Assembly (NCBI GenBank): GCA_963717935.1
Contig: CAVQXP010000001.1
Span: 32,001-96,000, forward strand
Length of the DNA stretch: 64,000 nt
Origin: Candidatus Eiseniibacteriota bacterium
GTDB lineage: Bacteria > Eisenbacteria > RBG-16-71-46
Direction of reading: 5' to 3'
Shown here: positions 2,682 to 58,598 of the stretch, in pieces
Numbering within the stretch: the first letter of the stretch is position 1
Layout: each line of letters opens with the position of its first letter
Made by a program: the position numbers and the translations under genes
Notes under the pieces: model-generated
The model's database searches: none
Seen by the model: only the letters and a program-made list of their open reading frames with translations
What the model was told of the DNA's origin: nothing

Positions 2682-4364
2682 GTGCTCGAACGCCTGGTCA
2701 TCCGCGACCTCGTGCTGGTGGAGCGGGCCGAGGTGGAATTCGGCCCGGGCCTCAACGTGGTGACCGGGGAGACCGGCGCGGGCAAGTCCCTGCTGGTGCA
2801 GGCCGTGGACCTGCTCACCGGCGGCCGCGCCGACCCGGGCGTCGTGCGCGTGGGCGCGAAGGCCGCGGTGGTCGAGGGCGAGTTCCGCCCTTCGCCGCGC
2901 GCCGCCCTGCGGGTCGGGCCGCTGCTCGCATCGTGGGGCATCGAGTGCGACGGTGAGAGCCTCATCCTCCGGCGCGAGGTCCAGACCGGCGGCAAGAGCC
3001 GTGCCCTGGTGAACCAGTCGGCGGTGACGCGAGGCGCGCTGCGGGAGCTGTGCGAGGCGCTCGCGGACCTCCATGGCCAGCACGAGCACCAGAGTCTGCT
3101 GCGCGCCGACGCGGGCCTCGAGACCCTCGATCGGCTCGCGGCGTTCGAGGGTGAGAGCGCCCGCTACGCGCAGGCGCTGTCCGCCTGGCGCGCTGCCGCC
3201 TCCCAACTCGAGGCGCTCGAGCGCTCGCTGGCGACGTACGCCGAGCGGCGCGAGTGGATGGAGCAGGCGGCGCTCGAGCTGGACGAGGCACGCCTGCGCG
3301 AGGGCGAGGACGACGAGCTCCGGCTCGAGGCCGCGCGCCGGGCCCACGCCGACCGCCTGCGCGAGCTGGTGGAGCAGGCGCTCGGGCGGCTCTCGGATGG
3401 CGAAGCGCCGGCCGTGGACGCCATCGCCCAGGCCGGGCGCGCGCTCGAGCAGGCGGCCGCGCTCGACCCGAGCCTCGCGGAGTCCCTGCCTGCGCTCGAC
3501 GAGGCGCGCATCGCCGCGACCGAGGTCGCGCGCGCTCTCGGCGAGTATGCCTCGCGCCTCGAGGCCGACCCGGCCGCGCTGGAGCAGATCGAGTCCCGGC
3601 GCGAGACGATCGCCCGGCTCGTGCGGAAGCACCGCCGCGACGTGCCCGCGCTGATCGCCTGGCGCGTGGAGCTGGGCCGTGAGCTCGCCACGGGGGAGGA
3701 CGCCGAGGCCGCGCTGTCGCGCGCGCGCGCCGCCGCGCAGGAGACGCACGCGGCCTGCCACGCCGCGGCGCGCGCCCTCTCGCGCAGACGTCAGGCGGCC
3801 GCGAAGGAGTGGGGGATGAGGCTCACGAAGGAGATGAAGCCGCTCGGGATGCAGCATGCGAGCCTCGGCTTCCGGGTCGAGCCGGACGACGGCCCGGAGC
3901 CCGCCTTCGCTGCGCACGGGCTCGACCAGGTCGAGATCATGTTCAGCGCCAACCCGGGCGAGCCTGCCCGGCCGCTGCAGCGGATCGTCTCGGGCGGCGA
4001 GCTTTCCAGGGTGATGCTGGCTCTGAAGGTAGCGCTGGAAGCCCAAGACCCCGTTGACCTTCTGCTGTTCGATGAAGTGGATTCCGGGATCGGCGGCGCG
4101 GTCGCCCAGGCGGTCGGGGAACGCCTCAAGCGCCTGGCGCGGCACCGCCAGGTCATCTGCGTGACCCACCTGCCGATGATCGCCGCCCTCGCCACCCATC
4201 ACCTGCGGGTGGACAAGTCCGTGGCGGCGGGCCGCACGGTGGCGCGCATCGTGGTGGTCGAGGACGGAGCGCGCGTCGAGGAACTCGCCCGGATGCTGGC
4301 CGGCGACCGCGTCACCGACACCACACGGCGTCAGGCCCGCGAGTTGCTGGGGGCGGGCGCGTGA
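2682..4364 (+). CDS. recN: DNA repair protein RecN
   Basis: TGETGAGKS Walker A, LHGQHEHQ, SGGELSRVMLAL, FDEVDSG and VTHLP. Confidence 0.97.
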   Translation: MLERLVIRDLVLVERAEVEFGPGLNVVTGETGAGKSLLVQAVDLLTGGRADPGVVRVGAKAAVVEGEFRPSPRAALRVGPLLASWGIECDGESLILRREVQTGGKSRALVNQSAVTRGALRELCEALADLHGQHEHQSLLRADAGLETLDRLAAFEGESARYAQALSAWRAAASQLEALERSLATYAERREWMEQAALELDEARLREGEDDELRLEAARRAHADRLRELVEQALGRLSDGEAPAVDAIAQAGRALEQAAALDPSLAESLPALDEARIAATEVARALGEYASRLEADPAALEQIESRRETIARLVRKHRRDVPALIAWRVELGRELATGEDAEAALSRARAAAQETHAACHAAARALSRRRQAAAKEWGMRLTKEMKPLGMQHASLGFRVEPDDGPEPAFAAHGLDQVEIMFSANPGEPARPLQRIVSGGELSRVMLALKVALEAQDPVDLLLFDEVDSGIGGAVAQAVGERLKRLARHRQVICVTHLPMIAALATHHLRVDKSVAAGRTVARIVVVEDGARVEELARMLAGDRVTDTTRRQARELLGAGA

Positions 4365-5848
4365 CGGCCGCGCACGACCGTCCCGTGACTCCCGGGCGCG
4401 ACGAGTTCCGCGCGCTCGCGGCGGGCGGCAGACATGTCCCGGTCTACCGCGACGTCCCCGCCGACCACGAGACGCCCGTCTCCGCCTTCCGCAAGCTCGA
4501 CGACGGTGCCCACGCCTTCCTGATCGAGAGTCTCGAGGGTGGCGAGAAGTGGGGGCGGTTCTCCGCGCTGGGGAGCAGGCCCACGCTGGTCTTCACGGCC
4601 CGCGGCGAGCGCTGCGAGATCCTCGAGGACGGTGTCACGCGCCCCTGCGCCGGCCCGCCCCTCGATGAGTTGCGGGACCTGCTCGCGGGACGCCACGCCG
4701 TCGCCCTGCCGGGACTGCCGCGCTTCTGCGGGGGCGCGGTGGGCTACCTCGGCTGCGGCGCCGCGCGCTGGTTCGGGCGACGGACCGCGAAGGCGCCCGC
4801 CGGGCCCGGGCCGCCCGATGCCGTGTTCCTCGTCACCGGCGTCGTCACCGTCTTCGACCACGTCGCGCACACCGTCAAGGTCGTGACCCACGCGCGCGGA
4901 GGGGACGACCCCGACGCGGCGTGGGCAGCGGCGGTCGGGCGCCTCGACGCGGAGATCGCGCGGCTCGAGGCCCCGCTGGCCTGGCCTGCGACGGCGGCCG
5001 GGACCCCGCTCGGGCAGCCCGCCTCGTCGTCCACGCCCGAGCGGTTCCGGTCCGCCGTCGAACGCGCCCGGGCGCACATCCGCGCGGGGGACGTGCTGCA
5101 GCTGACGCTCGCGCGGCGCCTGAGCGTGCCCGTCCAGGTGCCCGCCTTCGAGACCTACCGAGCGCTGCGCCTGACCGCCCCGTCGCCCTACAGCCACTTT
5201 CTCAGGCTCGGCGGCCTCTGTCTCGCGGGCTCCGCGCCCGGCTCGCTGGTGCGCCGCGCGGATGACGTGGTCGAGGCGCACATCCTCTCGGGGACGCGGC
5301 CGCGCGGCCGCACACCGGAGGAGGAGCGCAGGCTGGAGGAGGAGCTGCGCGCCGGGGAGCGGGAGCGCGCGGCCCACGCTCTGCGCGTGGACCTGAGCCG
5401 CAGCGACGTGGGCTGCGTGGCCGAGCCCGGCACCGTCGACACCAGCGAGTGGATGGAGGTGGAGCGCCATTCGCAGGCCATGCACCTGGGGTCCACCGTC
5501 CGTGGCCGGCCGCGGCAGGACGCCGGCCCGCTGGACCTGCTGGGGGCCTGCTTCCCCGCCGGCGGCGACTGCGGCGTGCCCCGGCCCCGGGCCCTGGAAC
5601 TCATCGAGGAGCTGGAGCCGGCGTCGCGCGGGGTCCACGCCGGGGCGGTCGGATACTTCGACCTTCGAGGCGGCCTGGACCTGTGCAGCGCCGCGCACAC
5701 GCTGGTCCTCGCCGACGGGCGCGCCGACTGGAGCGCGGGGGCCGTGATCGCCGCGGACACCGACCCCGAGGCGGCGTGGCGCGAGACCCAGGACCAGGCC
5801 CGCGGGCCGTGGCTCGCCCTTCAGCGCGCCACGGGAGCCTCGCGATGA
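4361..5848 (+). CDS. trpE: Anthranilate synthase component I homolog, catalytically degenerate (TrpE*)
   Basis: ETPVSAFRKL, LIES, GRFS, PRFCGGAVGY, PSPY, GTRPRG, FPAG and GAVGYF scaffold motifs are present. Active-site residues are substituted (see findings). GTGA overlap with recN. Confidence 0.9.
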   Translation: MTAAHDRPVTPGRDEFRALAAGGRHVPVYRDVPADHETPVSAFRKLDDGAHAFLIESLEGGEKWGRFSALGSRPTLVFTARGERCEILEDGVTRPCAGPPLDELRDLLAGRHAVALPGLPRFCGGAVGYLGCGAARWFGRRTAKAPAGPGPPDAVFLVTGVVTVFDHVAHTVKVVTHARGGDDPDAAWAAAVGRLDAEIARLEAPLAWPATAAGTPLGQPASSSTPERFRSAVERARAHIRAGDVLQLTLARRLSVPVQVPAFETYRALRLTAPSPYSHFLRLGGLCLAGSAPGSLVRRADDVVEAHILSGTRPRGRTPEEERRLEEELRAGERERAAHALRVDLSRSDVGCVAEPGTVDTSEWMEVERHSQAMHLGSTVRGRPRQDAGPLDLLGACFPAGGDCGVPRPRALELIEELEPASRGVHAGAVGYFDLRGGLDLCSAAHTLVLADGRADWSAGAVIAADTDPEAAWRETQDQARGPWLALQRATGASR

Positions 5849-6437
5849 TCGGGGTCATCGACAACCACGGCGCCTTCATCGGCAGCCTGCTGCAGTACCT
5901 GGCCACGCTCGGTGCACGCTTCGAGGTCCACGCGAACGACGCCATCACGGCCGAAGCGCTGGGCGCGCGTCCGATCGAGGGCCTGGTGCTGTCGTCCGGG
6001 CCGGGGGATCCGACGGCTGCCGGCGTGACGCCCGAAGCGATCCGCCGGTTCGCCGGCCGCGTGCCCATCCTGGGCATCGGCCTCGCTCACCAGGCTCTGG
6101 CCCAGGTCTACGGCGCGAAGCTCGCACCGGCCCCGGACCTCCTGCACGGCACGACGAGCCCCGTGCTGCACCGGGGCCGGGGCCTCTTCGCCGGTCTCGA
6201 GAACCCCTTCGCGGCAGCGCGCTATCATGCGCAGGTCGTGGAGCGCGAGTCCCTGCCCCGCACCCTCGAGATCACGGCCTGGACCCCCCAGGGGGAGATC
6301 ATGGGGCTGCGACATCGCGATCACGAGTGCTGGGGTGTACAGTTCCCGCCCCAGTCCATCCTGACCTGCCCGGGCCTCAGGCTCGTGGAGAACTTCCTTG
6401 TCGCTGTGCCGCCATCACAAGGGAGGTACCCCAGTGA
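5845..6437 (+). CDS. trpG: Anthranilate synthase component II (class I glutamine amidotransferase) homolog lacking the catalytic triad (TrpG*); 3' end ambiguous
   Basis: MIGVIDN.., SGPGDP, PILGIGLAHQ, ARYH, GVQFPPQSILT, LVENFL. ATGA overlap with trpE. An indel near 6395-6435 leaves either a GTGA-coupled stop or a TrpG-TrpD fusion. Confidence 0.85.
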
Positions 6438-7442
6438 TCCGCATGGCCATCGCACGCGCGGTGCTCCGCGAGGACCTGCCGCGGGAGCTGGCGCGCGCCA
6501 GCATGGAGCAGATCCTCGACGGCGACGCCACGCCGGCGCAGATCGGCGCCCTCGCCGTGGCCCTGCGCATGAAGGGCGAGACTCCCGACGGAGATCGCCA
6601 GCATGGCCGAGGCGATGCGCGAGCGCGTGCCACCCATCCGCACCAAGCGCGCGCCGCTGCTCGACACCTGCGGCACCGGCGGCGACAACGCCGGCACGTT
6701 CAACATCTCGACCACCTCGGCCATCGTGGTGGCGTCGTGCGGCGTGGCGGTGGCCAAGCACGGCAACCGCGCGGTCTCGAGCCGCACCGGGAGCGCCGAC
6801 GTGCTCGAGGCCCTGGGCGTGGGCCTCGATCTGACCCCGGAGAGCGCCGCGCGCTCGCTCGACCTGCTGGGCATCACGTTCCTGTTCGCGCCCAACTACC
6901 ACGCCGCGCTGCGCCACGCCGCGGGGCCGCGTCGCGAGGTCGGCATCCGCACGATCCTCGACCTGCTCGGCCCGCTCACCAACCCGGCCGGCGCGCGGCG
7001 GCAGCTGATCGGCGTCTTCTCCGACCGTCTGGTGCGCCGCATCGCCGAGGTCCTGAAGATCCTCGGCAGCGAGCGGGCCTGGGTCGTGCACGGCCTCGAC
7101 GGACTGGACGAGCTGACGGTGCGGGGACGCTCTCACGTCGCCGAGCTGGACCGCGGCCAGATCCGCGAATTCGAGGTGGACCCCGGGCCCCTGGGTCTCG
7201 CGCACGCCGAGCGCAGTGGCCTCGAGGGCGGGGACGCGGCCGCCAACGCCGTGCGGATCCGCGCCGTGCTGGCGGGGGAGAAGGGGCCGGCGCGCGACAT
7301 CGTCGCGCTCAACGCGGGTGGCGCGCTGGTCGTGGCCGGCGTGGTGGGGGATCTCGCCGGGGGCGTGGCGCAGGCCCAGGAGGCGATCGACAGCGGGCGT
7401 GCCGCGCGCAAGCTCGACGACCTCACGGCCTTCCGGGACTGA
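6434..7442 (+). CDS. trpD: Anthranilate phosphoribosyltransferase (one apparent +1 indel near 6590)
   Basis: GGAGG SD before GTG 6434. QIGALAVALRMKGET, DTCGTGGD, FNIST, KHGNRAVSSRTGSADVLEALG and GLDE motifs. Confidence 0.93.
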
Positions 7443-7466
7443 CCTTCATCCGAGAGGGGGCCGGAC

Positions 7467-8105
7467 ATGTTCTGCATCCGCTGCGGCGCCAACCTGCCCG
7501 AAGACGCGGCATTCTGTGCATCCTGCGGAGCCCCCGTCACCAGCGGCACGGCCGCGGCCGCGGCGGCCTCACCGCCGCCCGGCGCGGTCTCCGGGCCCTG
7601 GGCGGCCGTTCCGGCCGAACTGCCCGCGGTCCGCGCGACACGGGACTACAGCGGTTTCTGGCGCCGCTTCTGGGGCCATGTGATCGACCGCTTCATCCTC
7701 GGCGTGGTGTTCGTGCCCGTGAGCTTCATGGTCCTCGTGCCGATGATGGCCACCGAATCGGCCGGATGGACGGACACCGATCTGCCGGCCGAGGCGATCA
7801 CCGCGCTCCTGGGGGCCATCCTCGCCGTGGCATTCTTCGAGCTGTTGGGCAGCTGGCTCTACAGCGCGCTCCTGCAGAGTTCGTCGAGGCAGGCCACGCT
7901 CGGCCAGCTCGCGCTCGGCATCCACGTCACGGATCTCGAGGGACGGCGTGTCTCCTTCGCCCGCGCGAGCGGGCGCCACTTCGCGACCGTGCTCACCGGC
8001 CTCACCTTCGGCATCGGCTACCTCATCATGCTCTTCACGACGAGGAAGCAGACCCTGCACGACCTGATCGGCGGCACCGTCGTCGTGCGAACCGATCCCG
8101 CGTGA
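7467..8105 (+). CDS. Zinc-ribbon plus RDD family membrane protein
   Basis: MFCIRCG..FCASCG N-terminus, then GFWRRFWGHVID, QATLGQ..G.HV and KQTLHDLIGGTVVV. Confidence 0.88.
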   Translation: MFCIRCGANLPEDAAFCASCGAPVTSGTAAAAAASPPPGAVSGPWAAVPAELPAVRATRDYSGFWRRFWGHVIDRFILGVVFVPVSFMVLVPMMATESAGWTDTDLPAEAITALLGAILAVAFFELLGSWLYSALLQSSSRQATLGQLALGIHVTDLEGRRVSFARASGRHFATVLTGLTFGIGYLIMLFTTRKQTLHDLIGGTVVVRTDPA

Positions 8106-9712
8106 GCCGCGGGCGCCTCCCTGTTGGTGCTCCCGCCCGCGAACCCCGCCTGAGCGCGGCAGGCGGCACGGCGCGGCGCGAGGTCCTCGTGGACCTGGTC
8201 GCGATCCTCGGCGCGTGGGTCGTCTTCGCCTTCGCCCTCGGACGCGGCTCCCTGGTCACCGCCTACGACGTCTTCCGCGACATGTCCTATGCGCAGGCCA
8301 TCCTCCAGGGGCACCTCTCGCAGGACCCCTCGATCCCGGGCTTTCGCGCGTGGTATCCGCCGGGGAACCCGCTCACCTTCGCGGGGCTGGCGACCCTGAC
8401 GCGGATCTCACCGGTGGATCTCTACGCGACCAGCCTCTACTGGCTCGGCTGGATCAATCCGGTTGCCCTCTATCTTCTGGTGCGCTCCCGTTGGGGCCGC
8501 GCCACGGCGCTTGTGTCCCTGGCCACCGTCCTCCTCGGTTCGTTCTGGTGGTTCACCCACATGGCCATGCCGATGGCGAGCATCCAGGGCGTCGCGCTGG
8601 GCCTGCTCGCCCTGCTCGCCTGGACGACCGATCGCGGCCGCGGGTTCCGCCGCGCGGCCCTCACGGGCGTGCTCCTGGCGCTGGCGATCTGGCACCATCC
8701 GATCTGCGGAGCGCTGGCGATGGGCAGCATCGTCGTACACGGAGCGGTCGCCGCGTTGCTCCCGGCGAACCGTGGCGACCCGGTCGCGTCCCGCTTCGAA
8801 CTCGCGAAGAGGGCCGCGCTGGCCAGCGCCGTGGGCCTCCTGCTCGCCGCACCGCTGCTCCTGGGCCAACTCGGCCTGTCCCGGACGAACGCGGCGCCGC
8901 ACCACTGGTTCGCGCCCGAACTCCACGACCCGCGCTTCGCGTTCCACCTGCATGCGCCGCTGATCGTGCCGCTCGGCCTCGTCGGGCTGTGGCTCGCTGC
9001 GCGCCGCTGGCGCGAGGAGGGCTGGCTCGTGGCCTATTTCGGCATCGGGCTCGCCGGGCAGATCGCCGGATACCTCGGCCATGACGCCGGATGGGGGATC
9101 CCCTGGGCGCTGCCGCACGAGTTCCAGTGGCACGAGCAACTCGCCCTGATGGTCGCAGCGGCCATCGCCACCGTCCGGCTTGCCACCTGGCTCGCCGCCG
9201 GCGTGCGGGGCGCACGGCGGGACCTGGCGCGTCGAGCCGGCATCGCCACGCTCCTCGCGCTGAGCACGGGACCCGCCCTGTTCAACCTGCCGCTCGCGAG
9301 TTCCTATCTGATGCGGCTCGACGAGCGTTGGCAGGCCTCGCTGGCGACGGCCCGCTGGATCCGCGCGAACACGCCCCTCGAGGCCGTGTTCGCGTGCCCG
9401 CCGGAGACGGGCTACTTCCTCTCCGGGCTCACCGGGCGCCGCTGCCTCGCACTGCCTCCCGGGCACATGAATCCCGCACTCGACGCGGAGGCACGTTACG
9501 CCGACGTGGCCGAGCTGTTGAACACGCCCGACGAGGAAGTCTTCCGGCGCCTGGCGGCGCGGTACGGTGCCACGCATCTTCTCGTCACGCCCGCGCCGCG
9601 CTTCCTGGCCCGCGCCCGGGAGACCTACGCCCGCTGGCGGTGTCTCGAGCCCGCCGGTCTCGCGGACAGCACGGTGCTCCTCTATCGCATCCGGCGGCCC
9701 ACGGGCCGCTGA
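8102..9712 (+). CDS. Polytopic membrane protein, probable GT-C-fold glycosyltransferase
   Basis: GTGA overlap with the RDD gene. About 10-12 hydrophobic helices, an acidic first loop (AYDVFRD..DP..WYPPG) and a soluble C-terminus with WIRANTP..GYFLSGLTGR. Confidence 0.6.
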   Translation: MSRGRLPVGAPAREPRLSAAGGTARREVLVDLVAILGAWVVFAFALGRGSLVTAYDVFRDMSYAQAILQGHLSQDPSIPGFRAWYPPGNPLTFAGLATLTRISPVDLYATSLYWLGWINPVALYLLVRSRWGRATALVSLATVLLGSFWWFTHMAMPMASIQGVALGLLALLAWTTDRGRGFRRAALTGVLLALAIWHHPICGALAMGSIVVHGAVAALLPANRGDPVASRFELAKRAALASAVGLLLAAPLLLGQLGLSRTNAAPHHWFAPELHDPRFAFHLHAPLIVPLGLVGLWLAARRWREEGWLVAYFGIGLAGQIAGYLGHDAGWGIPWALPHEFQWHEQLALMVAAAIATVRLATWLAAGVRGARRDLARRAGIATLLALSTGPALFNLPLASSYLMRLDERWQASLATARWIRANTPLEAVFACPPETGYFLSGLTGRRCLALPPGHMNPALDAEARYADVAELLNTPDEEVFRRLAARYGATHLLVTPAPRFLARARETYARWRCLEPAGLADSTVLLYRIRRPTGR

Positions 9713-9814
9713 GCGACGCCGGGTGGGCCGGGCGGGCGCAGAGGGCACGCCACCTGGCCGCCTGCGCGCGCGTTCAGGGCCCGCCGCCCGGACCCGTTCC
9801 GACGCGCCCTCCGC

Positions 9815-19439: not shown

Positions 19440-20457
19440 GTGCCCGCGCTGAAGCGCTCCGCCGCGGTCCGCGGGAGCGCTCCACCGTCGGCGCGCCGTG
19501 CGCCCGCGGATGGGCTCGAGCTGATCGAGCGCTTCCGCCGCGGCGACTTCCCGGCCATGCTCTACCTCGAGGGGCCGAGCGAGTCCCTGAAGGCCGCGCT
19601 GCTCGCCGAGTTGCGCCGCGCCTGGGCCCGGGCCTGCCCCGAAGCCCCCCTGGCGCGCGTCTTCCGCGCGGCCGAGGCCGGCATCGAGGAGATCCTCGCC
19701 GCCTTCCAGGGGGCCTCGCTCTTCAGCCCGCGCGACCTCATCCTGGTGCTCGAGGTCGAGGACCTGGGCCGCAGCGAGAAGCGCGTGGCGGCCCTGGCCG
19801 CCGGGCTCGCGACTCCGGGCGGCGGCTCGTGCCTGGTGCTTCACGAGTCCGAGGCCGACGCGCCCCGCAAGTCGCTCGAGCCGCTGCGCGCCGCCTCGTC
19901 GCTGCGCTGGGTCGCCGAGGTGCCCGCGCGGCCGGAGTTGCTGCGCTGGGGCCATTGCCGGCTGGCCGACGACGATCTCGACCTCGAGCCGGGCGTGGTC
20001 GAGGCCGTGGCCGACGCCTGCGAGGGCGACCCGCTCACGTTCTTCAACGAACTCGAGAAGCTCGACGTGATCGCCCCGCTCGTGGACGGCCGCCGCCGCA
20101 TCACGCGCCAGGCCGCGGACACGATGCTCAAGCCCGTGCTCGGCGCGGACCTGCCCGAATACCTCTCCGCCGTGGCGCTGGGGCGTTCGCGAGTTCGCCG
20201 GCCGGGCGCTCGCACGCCTGCTCACGGCCGGCGTGGGGGAGGGCACCGTGCTCTTCGCCCTGTCGAACCTGGTGGGTGGCGCACTGGGGGGCTGGGCGCG
20301 GAACAAGGAGCTGAGCGCGGCGCTCGCACGCCGTCGCACGCCACGCGAGCTGGCTCGCTCGCTCGACGCCATCTATCGCGCCGAGGCCGCCTGGAAGGGC
20401 GGCCGCGCCGACGTGGTCGCGGTGCTCGAGCAGGCCACCCGGGCGGTGTGCGGGTAG
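19440..20457 (+). CDS. holA: DNA polymerase III delta subunit-like protein (indel near 20190; start approximate)
   Basis: [22 protein letters not shown] and RIT; lptE-holA-leuS neighbourhood. Confidence 0.75.
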
Positions 20458-20644
20458 GAGTGGTCAGGCGGCACGGCGGGAAGCTCGCAGCGAGGGTCCG
20501 GGCCCCGGCCGGCGCAGGATGCGACGGCCGGGGAATTGCCCGGGAGCGAGCACGGCCAGGATGGCCGCGCGCAGCGTCCTCGCGCAGGGCTTCCCGCCGT
20601 GCCGCCTGACCACTCGCGCGCTTGCGGGCGCCCCGCGGTCCGGC

Positions 20645-20673
20645 GTGACTCCGCCCGCCCCATGCCGTAATCT
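20645..20673 (+). promoter_or_regulatory. Probable sigma70 promoter for leuS
   Basis: GTGACT, 17 nt, TAATCT. Confidence 0.5.
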
Positions 20674-20719
20674 TCGCCGTCCCGAGTCGCACCGAACCCC
20701 TCACCCCTTCCAAGAGGCC

Positions 20720-23186
<2,467 letters not shown>

Positions 23187-57055: not shown

Positions 57056-58598
57056 TCACTCCCACTCGATCGTCGCCGGGGGCTTGCTGGTGCAGTCGTA
57101 GACCACTCGGTTGATGCCGCGCACCTCGTTGACGATGCGCGACGAGACGCGCGCCAGCAGGCTCGCGGGCAGGCGCGTCCAGTCGGCGGTCATGCCGTCC
57201 TGGCTGTTCACCGCGCGCAGCGCGATGACCTTCTCGTAGGAGCGCTCGTCGCCCTTCACCCCCACGGTCGAGACCGGCAGCAGGACGGCCAGCGCCTGCC
57301 ACGTCCGCCCGTACCACTTCGCGCGGCGCAACTCCTCGATGAAGATCGCGTCCGCGCGACGCAGCAGCTCGAGGTCGTGCTCGGTGATCGGGCCGAGGAT
57401 GCGCACCGCGAGCCCCGGCCCCGGGAACGGGTGCCGGTCCACCAGGTGGTCCGGCAGCCCCAGCGCCCGGCCCAGCTCGCGCACCTCGTCCTTGAAGAGC
57501 CAGGCGCAGCGGCTCGATGAGCTTGAGCTTCATCCGGTCCGGCAGGCCACCGACGTTGTGGTGGCTCTTGATGACCTGCGAGCCGAAGCCCGCCGAGGCG
57601 CTCTCGATCACGTCCGGGTAGAGCGTGCCCTGCGCGAGCCACTCGACCGGGCCGATCTTCCGGGCCTCGTCCTCGAAGACCCCGATGAACTCCTCGCCGA
57701 TGATCTTGCGCTTGCGCTCCGGATCGCTGACCCCGGCGAGCCGGTCGAGGAAGCGCCGCCGGGCGTCCACGATCTCGAGCCTCAAGCCGCGCTTCACCCC
57801 CAGCTCGCGCGCCACCTCCTCCGCCTCGCCCTCGCGCAGCAGGCCGTGGTTCACCATCACGCAGGTCAGGCGCTTGCCGACCGCGCGGTGACAGAGCGTG
57901 GCGACCACGCTCGAGTCCACGCCGCCCGAGAGCCCGCAGAGGATGTGGCCCTCCGGCCCCACCTGCGCGCGGATCGCGGCGACCGCGCTCTTCAGGAACG
58001 ACTTCATGCTCCAGCCGCCCTCCAGGCGCGCCACCTTGAAAAGGAAGTTCGCGAGCACCTGCCTGCCGTAGGGCGAGTGCACGACCTCCGGGTGGAACTG
58101 GATCAGGTGGAACGGGCGCTTCTCGTGCTCCGCCGCGGCGAAGGCGCAGTTCGCGGTGTGCGCCACGCGGCGCCAGCCCGCGGGGAGCGCGGCCACCTCG
58201 TCACCGTGGCTCATCCACGCGCGGAAGCGCTTCGGCACCTTCTCGAACAGGAGCGAGCGCCCGTCCCGCACGAAGGTCGCCATGCCGTACTCGGCGCGCG
58301 ACGCGCGCTCGAGCTCCCCGCCCATCAGCTGCATCGTGGCCTGGAAGCCGTAGCAGATGCCGAGCAGCGGTTTCTTCAGTTCGTAGATGCCGGGGTCGGG
58401 CATCGGCGCCGCGACCTTGTAACCGCTCGCCGGCGAGCCCGAGAGGATGAGCGCGCTCGGCCGGCGCGCGGCGATCGCCGCCGCGGGCGTGGTGCCCGGC
58501 ACGATCTCCGAGAACACCCCCAGCTCGCGCACCCGCCGAGCGATCAGCTGCGTGTACTGCGAGCCGAAGTCGAGGATGACGACGAGTTCACGGGACAT
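57056..58598 (-). CDS. guaA: GMP synthase, glutamine-hydrolysing (indel near 57500)
   Basis: [41 protein letters not shown] and KPPATIEWE. Confidence 0.96.

Follow-up and report, generated by a model that had tools for sequence, protein, structure and literature searches.

A stretch of 64,000 nucleotides from Candidatus Eiseniibacteriota bacterium (assembly GCA_963717935.1, contig CAVQXP010000001.1, positions 32,001 to 96,000; hereafter the window) carries homologues of both anthranilate synthase subunits in which the catalytic residues have been replaced. Both lie on the plus strand: a homologue of anthranilate synthase component I without the catalytic motifs (4361..5848) and a homologue of class I glutamine amidotransferases in which the Cys-His-Glu triad is missing (5845..6437). 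We write the genes as dtrpE and dtrpG and their products as dTrpE and dTrpG, with d for dead-type. Both genes are under strong purifying selection. We consider it likely that they represent a pseudoenzyme pair that selection has maintained at the ancestral recN-trpE-trpG-trpD locus in a sub-lineage of Candidatus Eisenbacteria, a name taken here from source labels. The two proteins would no longer make anthranilate, would still fold and pair like the subunits of anthranilate synthase and would have been retained for a non-catalytic role. By analogy with known pseudoenzymes this role is probably regulatory or scaffolding; our best guess is a ligand-binding partner with a link to TrpD or to the metabolism of tryptophan.

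Replaced catalytic residues in dTrpG and dTrpE

The glutaminase activity of class I amidotransferases requires a Cys-His-Glu triad. An earlier note on this DNA had reported that all three residues are missing from the TrpG of the window, and the codons bear this out. In the frame that starts with the ATG at 5845, codon 79 (6079..6081) is GGC, so that Gly takes the place of the nucleophile Cys in the motif GIGLAHQ. Codons 168-170 (6346..6354) read CCG CCC CAG, so that within the translated string VQFPPQSIL the motif is QFPPQS, with Pro for the triad His (codon 168, 6346-6348) and Gln for the triad Glu (codon 170, 6352-6354). Normal relatives have GVCLGHQ and QFHPES at the same positions. The glutamine-site motifs are changed as well: DNYDSF has become DNHGAF, SPGPG has become SSGPG, HGKTS has become HGTTS and RYHSL has become RYHAQ. 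The first and last of these had also been pointed out and are present in the translation (MIGVIDNHGAF..., ARYHAQ). GuaA, which had been named as an internal control, keeps its motifs on the minus strand of the window (GICYG at 58361, QFHPE at 58100).

dTrpG is still recognized as a class I amidotransferase, as evidenced by its scores with Pfam PF00117 (141.9 bits, cut-off 22.8) and TIGR00566 trpG_papA (162.7, cut-off 121.05), and it shares 61-67% identity with live TrpG of Eisenbacteria. It falls below the cut-off in every NCBIfam equivalog model, for example with 189.8 against 332. Because the triad is missing, we infer from the sequence that dTrpG is without glutaminase activity, i.e. that it is not a glutaminase. 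The genome encodes one other TrpG/PabA-type protein (L002:1486-2049, minus strand, corresponding to G000:C4:486405-486947, where G000 is this genome), which adjoins a pabB-like gene. It keeps GICLGHQ but has QFHPDS, with Asp at the position of the triad Glu.

The same replacements are found beyond this genome. Among 29 relatives' loci, the two from sister species with dead-type loci, G005 and G004, have a dTrpG that is 85% and 75% identical to that of the window, with G/P/Q and G/A/Q at the triad positions, respectively, and the remaining 27 keep GVCLGHQ and QFHPES. A large protein collection yielded 120 listed TrpG clusters, of which 119 were analysed after omission of P0018, a chimera-like protein of 300 amino acids. 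Cys is present in all 86 normal clusters and missing from the other 33, which have Gly (32) or Asp (1) as nucleophile residue. In these dead-type clusters the triad His is replaced in 30 of 33 (by P, T, A or L) and Gln stands in for the triad Glu in 31 of 33. The length is nearly constant, with 196 amino acids in 31 clusters, 195 in one and 197 in another. In a tree of the clusters, dead-type TrpG forms one clade nested within normal TrpG of Candidatus Eisenbacteria, and the triad erodes stepwise from GHE (P0049) over GHQ (P0031, P0092) to GPQ and similar combinations. Nine metagenome contigs carry close copies of dtrpG with at least 82% identity, and wherever such a contig is long enough the order is recN-dtrpE-dtrpG-trpD-RDD. 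The earlier note had held the differences to be real substitutions and not assembly errors, and had suggested a search for homologues with altered triads. Both points are upheld, as the search returned the identical G/P/Q in G005 and the 33 of 119 clusters without Cys, and the same residues occur in 2 of 29 relatives' loci and in all 10 DNA copies from the clade. Their recurrence in independent assemblies excludes chance.

The partner subunit has changed in a similar manner. dTrpE matches Pfam PF00425 (204.5) and PF04715 (78.7). With TIGR00564, dTrpE of the window, G004 and G005 scores 358.7, 355.3 and 353.0, all below the cut-off of 517.7, and live TrpE of the relatives G001 and G010 scores 546.9 and 542.1. 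Five motifs of live TrpE are altered in the window: GSSPE to GSAPG, RAEHVM to RAAHAL, FPAGTVSGAPK to FPAGGDCGVPR, RGVYAG to RGVHAG and IAIRT to SAAHT. At the marker positions in S-P-E, A-E-H, G-A-P-K and I-A-I-R-T, the window thus has G, A, R and H, against E, E, K and R in 93 of the 120 TrpE clusters listed. SPG or SPS, AAH and G(V/A/L)PR occur in 25 of these 120 clusters and in all three genomes. We take the replaced residues to be the catalytic acid, the metal ligand and the substrate binders of chorismate-utilising enzymes. Changes at sites that are invariant in normal TrpE are concentrated in residues 211-495 (51 of 162 sites) compared with residues 1-210 (10 of 89), and five of the ten N-terminal changes concern the N-terminal extension only. 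The new residues are themselves conserved, e.g. D403, R408 and G294 at 88-100%.

Structure prediction is compatible with a model in which dTrpE and dTrpG still pair. The predicted complex scored 0.89 and the best of three controls 0.00, a result that may reflect likeness only, as solved anthranilate synthase complexes exist. Of 157 solved complexes, 116 reach the mark applied to this score, as do 2 of 215 mismatched pairs. Three prediction runs agreed in at least 97% of the contacts, and the predicted local distance difference test (pLDDT) value of the partner was at least 91.

Selection, gene order and assembly errors at the locus

We estimated omega within the dead-type clade with the codon model GY+F3X4 and compared the fit with that of omega=1 as twice the difference in log-likelihood (2ΔlnL), using recN as the control gene. 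For dtrpG, omega is 0.146 (10 sequences, 2ΔlnL 241.7) and for dtrpE it is 0.137 (8 sequences, 2ΔlnL 446.0). The values for recN and trpD are 0.098 (8 sequences, 2ΔlnL 731.8) and 0.038 (6 sequences, 2ΔlnL 413.5). Live trpG from 10 relatives has an omega of 0.039. Pairwise estimates, obtained for the less distant pairs, give the same rank order as maximum likelihood. Along dTrpE, omega is even (0.132 in the N-terminal half, 0.137 in the C-terminal half), which argues that the catalytic half changed in a burst and then came under renewed constraint.

The reading frames show no decay. Neither indels nor stops are found in the 10 copies of dtrpG (185 codons) or the 8 copies of dtrpE (482 codons), over tree lengths of about 2 and about 1.5 substitutions per codon, respectively. 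Gly79 is invariant in the 10 clade members despite being encoded by GGC, GGT or GGG, and Gln170 is CAG or CAA. Sites conserved to at least 90% number 118 of 185 in 31 dead-type TrpG sequences and 129 of 185 in 86 normal ones.

The two genes are embedded in a tightly packed run, in which recN, dtrpE, dtrpG and trpD are joined consecutively by stop/start overlaps. recN (2682..4364, plus strand, taken from the open reading frame list) is 86-91% identical to the recN of relatives, and it ends in a stop codon that overlaps with the GTG at which dtrpE begins. In relatives the TGA of trpG (6435-6437) overlaps the GTG start of trpD. In every locus that was read, dtrpG and trpD are two distinct genes. 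A scan of 4200-7600 returned neither promoter-like nor terminator-like sites. A contig of 523 nucleotides from RNA library X20 covers 6185-6710 in a relative; this library may contain DNA, hence the contig is no proof of transcription. Downstream, trpD (6434..7442, plus strand) encodes an anthranilate phosphoribosyltransferase with intact motifs, read in two frames through one extra base near 6589. Its larger piece scores 349.7-357.5 with TIGR01245 (cut-off 199), and GTGGD, KHGNR and HGLDGLDE are retained in the alignment. A gene for an RDD-like membrane protein (7467..8105, plus strand) lies 3' of trpD in normal and dead-type loci alike. Between it and a tRNA, a stretch of about 1.7 kb (8090-9757) encodes a large membrane protein; this stretch is also present in contig L064 and absent from G004, L065 and L067.

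The real frames were picked by tblastn against relatives' proteins. The assembly contains extra single bases. As assembled, the frame of dtrpG stays open until 6834, whereas the protein has 196 amino acids in relatives. An alignment with three relatives locates two extra bases in dtrpG, near 6401 and 6417; the third, near 6589, splits trpD and is missing in relatives. At 6398-6402 and 6415-6421 the extra bases are missing at all covering depth in X1, X2, X3 and X20, and the one at 6589 is missing at depths of 24.6 of 24.6, 37.7 of 37.7, 34.9 of 37.6 and 6.2 of 8.2 in the same order. These four are contigs of relatives and not reads of the organism itself, for which the best public run reached 0.17 of the sampled words; stretches that these contigs leave uncovered carry no information. 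Compared with the syntenic region of G004, the window shows 39 net indel clusters of a length not divisible by three in about 52 kb, mostly one extra base in the window. Nine of the 39, all of them +1, fall inside leuS (leucyl-tRNA synthetase, 20186-22184) and are assembly errors, because an essential gene cannot bear nine frameshifts. Most likely the extra bases near 6401, 6417 and 6589 have the same origin. Gene calls in this genome are thus often falsely split by extra bases.

The tryptophan pathway in this genome and its relatives

In normal relatives the genes are ordered trpE-trpG-trpD-RDD-trpC-trpF-trpB. The dead-type clade has lost the native trpC, trpF and trpB. The closest metagenome relative, L064, has an open frame of 270 amino acids at 8264-9073 that represents a dead-type trpC: it scores 166.6 with the NCBIfam model (cut-off 260), and its motifs are replaced (CEIKRASPS by CGILRASPT, LLKDF by LVDDL, NNRDL by GSREP, AESGI by AWSVD). 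This stretch of L064 is cleanly absent from the window. We did not find trpA, trpB, trpC or trpF in the 3.02 Mb of sequence of this genome, which is 93% complete.

The two sister species G004 (L054) and G005 (L057) carry a second, intact trpE-G-D-C-F-B-A operon of about 8 kb at one shared site. Its TrpE is 62-68% identical to that of Steroidobacteraceae and other Gammaproteobacteria, whereas identity with native Eisenbacteria TrpE is only about 48%; because of this closer relationship to Gammaproteobacteria, we regard the operon as horizontally acquired. The acquired trpG of G004, a single-contig genome, consists of two overlapping pieces in different frames (G004:C1:1757972-1758524), due to a frameshift or an assembly error; the G005 copy is whole. 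In this genome the flanks of the operon site are contiguous at G000:C2:28568-28649, i.e. the site is empty, which means that the operon is truly missing and has not just escaped assembly. The organism is probably unable to make tryptophan from chorismate and thus a tryptophan auxotroph. A TrpB-like (TrpB2-type) pyridoxal phosphate enzyme is encoded at about G000:C4:1563244-1564560 (L048:1333-2649; 741 bits with NF009057) and might allow tryptophan formation from indole. Weaker TIGR00263 matches of this TrpB-like kind occur in 6 of the 8 other genomes of the genus and family that were checked.

A different outcome is seen in three more species of the genus, G003, G006 and G007, whose genomes are 81-87% complete. 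In a trpD tree they form the sister clade of the dead-type clade (support 79), with support of 100 for the dead-type and 99 for this deletion clade. In G003 and G007, about 130 nucleotides separate recN from trpD. G006 retains a trpG remnant with about 35% identity, in which the last approximately 25 codons are well conserved and abut trpD. The orphan trpD directly after recN is intact in all three (402-403 bits; L231 in G003, L232 in G006, L230 in G007), and we found no trpE, trpC or trpB1 in these genomes. The deletions indicate that trpE and trpG disappear when selection is absent. The acquired operon is present in 2 of the 3 genomes that retain dtrpE and dtrpG and in 0 of these 3.

Just upstream of the lost His codon of dtrpG, GGTGTACAGT at 6334-6343 lies within the G-V-Q-F codons. 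The same string recurs nearly unchanged about 90-100 nucleotides upstream of trpD in G003, G006 and G007, in which trpE and trpG are deleted, and on the basis of this recurrence it may be a candidate signal for trpD expression. A scan with the sigma-70 consensus returned nothing at GGTGTACAGT.

Retention of the pair and comparison with known systems

Several observations weigh against a maintained pseudoenzyme pair. It is dispensable in some lineages, and TrpD is independent of it, given that G003, G006 and G007 lost both genes and kept trpD. Constraint is relaxed, as the omega of dtrpG exceeds that of live trpG about 3.7-fold. The dead trpC persists in L064 and is deleted in G000, G004 and two other contigs, so a dead gene can evidently remain for a while without being indispensable. 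A new active site at the triad His is made less likely by the variability of this position (P/A/T/L/H). The catalytic roles of the TrpE motifs are assigned on the basis of other chorismate-utilising enzymes. The protein clusters consist of called open reading frames, so that broken copies would be under-represented, and the DNA set is small, with 10 copies of which L065 and L066 are identical. Finally, in a genome without the pathway the three frameshifting insertions might conceivably be genuine lesions.

The main rival explanation would be a relic under indirect constraint: the pair has no function of its own, is expressed through its place between recN and a trpD that is still required, and is kept open and folded to avoid polarity on trpD and toxic misfolding. 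Such an account gains from the overlapping stops and starts from recN to trpD, a run that contains neither promoter-like nor terminator-like sites, and from trpD being the most constrained gene of the locus. The genes 3' of trpD (trpC, trpF, trpB) are deleted or dead while those upstream persist, and G006 has preserved well just the last 25 or so trpG codons before trpD. The deletions in G003 and G007 argue against it, since they demonstrate that a clean removal leaving about 130 nucleotides 5' of trpD is feasible and viable. Furthermore, an omega of 0.14, near that of recN, is lower than would be expected from the avoidance of misfolding alone, and some of the replacements, Gly79 among them, are in turn preserved across synonymous codons. 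We therefore regard indirect constraint as unlikely.

A changed catalytic activity would be another way to account for the constraint, with a new enzyme, e.g. one that is ammonia-dependent or acts on another substrate, using the remodelled pocket. This would fit with the burst-like changes that are concentrated in the catalytic half of dTrpE (51/162 vs 10/89), with the subsequent conservation of the new residues and with the uniform omega along the protein. However, SPE and AEH have each lost their invariant Glu and GAPK has lost its Lys, the triad His position of dTrpG varies and no new invariant nucleophile-like residue was identified in the comparison, which makes this explanation quite improbable. 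Even less credible is an ordinary pseudogene under neutral drift, with frames that stay open because stops are rare in G+C-rich DNA. It would account for the loss of catalytic residues in both subunits, the disappearance of native trpC, trpF, trpB and trpA and the assembled frameshifts in dtrpG and trpD. Neutrality is rejected for both genes, though (2ΔlnL 241.7 for dtrpG and 446.0 for dtrpE), and the 10 and 8 copies have accumulated no indels over the tree lengths given above. True decay in this genus also looks different, namely like deletion or a remnant of about 35% identity, and the frameshifts are missing from the covering contigs of relatives and of the same kind as the nine insertions in leuS. 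A sequencing or assembly artefact at the three triad codons, conceivable in view of the 39 indel clusters relative to G004, has a negligible chance of being correct, as the differences are substitutions, they turn up again in independent assemblies of 2 species, in 9 metagenome contigs and in 33 protein clusters, and none of the rows listed for the related contigs over this region (452 further rows exist) has another letter at 6346-6354.

As to what a pseudoenzyme pair maintained by selection might do, one tentative possibility, which we consider rather doubtful in this specific form, is a small-molecule sensor that controls the orphan TrpD or the acquired trp operon. The preserved N-terminal regulatory half of dTrpE together with the remodelled, conserved former active site would provide the sensing part. 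TrpD might then have a role outside tryptophan synthesis, since four species of the genus keep trpD and no trpC, trpB or live trpE was found in them.

The case is of wider relevance for several reasons. Both subunits of a heteromeric biosynthetic enzyme appear dead together, yet selection on them is almost as strong as on recN, and the same genus supplies natural controls, as the genes are live in some species, deleted in others and decayed to a remnant in one. The pathway was replaced by a horizontally acquired operon. Together, these features offer a testable case for how a redundant enzyme may be repurposed and not lost. Public records name these proteins 'anthranilate synthase'; judged by that name, the genome would wrongly be taken to confer tryptophan prototrophy. 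There is ample documentation of pseudoenzymes in eukaryotes and viruses, but in bacterial core metabolism they are, to our knowledge, little charted. In the literature library that we searched we found no description of a dead TrpG/TrpE pair or of a bacterial pseudo-anthranilate synthase.

With anthranilate synthase component II/PabA (TrpG), dTrpG shares the fold family, the length of 196 amino acids in relatives, and the place in the operon between trpE and trpD, and it would also share the predicted pairing with a large subunit. It differs in the absence of Cys-His-Glu, the altered glutamine-site motifs and scores below every equivalog cut-off. Inactive amidotransferase domains with a retained non-catalytic role have a precedent in the ammonia-dependent carbamoyl phosphate synthetase I. 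Similarly, the herpesvirus vGAT proteins are described as amidotransferase homologues without glutaminase activity that are kept for non-catalytic roles (PMC7605207). The vGAT proteins and the synthetase domain belong to other subfamilies and hosts, are not TrpG and are not known to have a dead synthase partner.

Within the same pathway, the nearest precedent appears to be TrpA of Chlamydia trachomatis, which is reported to be catalytically impaired, kept as an allosteric activator of TrpB and under partly relaxed selection (PMC8376405). The likeness lies in a subunit of the tryptophan pathway that has lost catalysis within an incomplete pathway and remains under partly relaxed purifying selection (PMC8376405). 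Two differences stand out: in Chlamydia one dead subunit benefits a live TrpB (PMC8376405), whereas here, with no known beneficiary, both subunits seem dead, and TrpA of Chlamydia conserves its catalytic residues, whereas here they are replaced.

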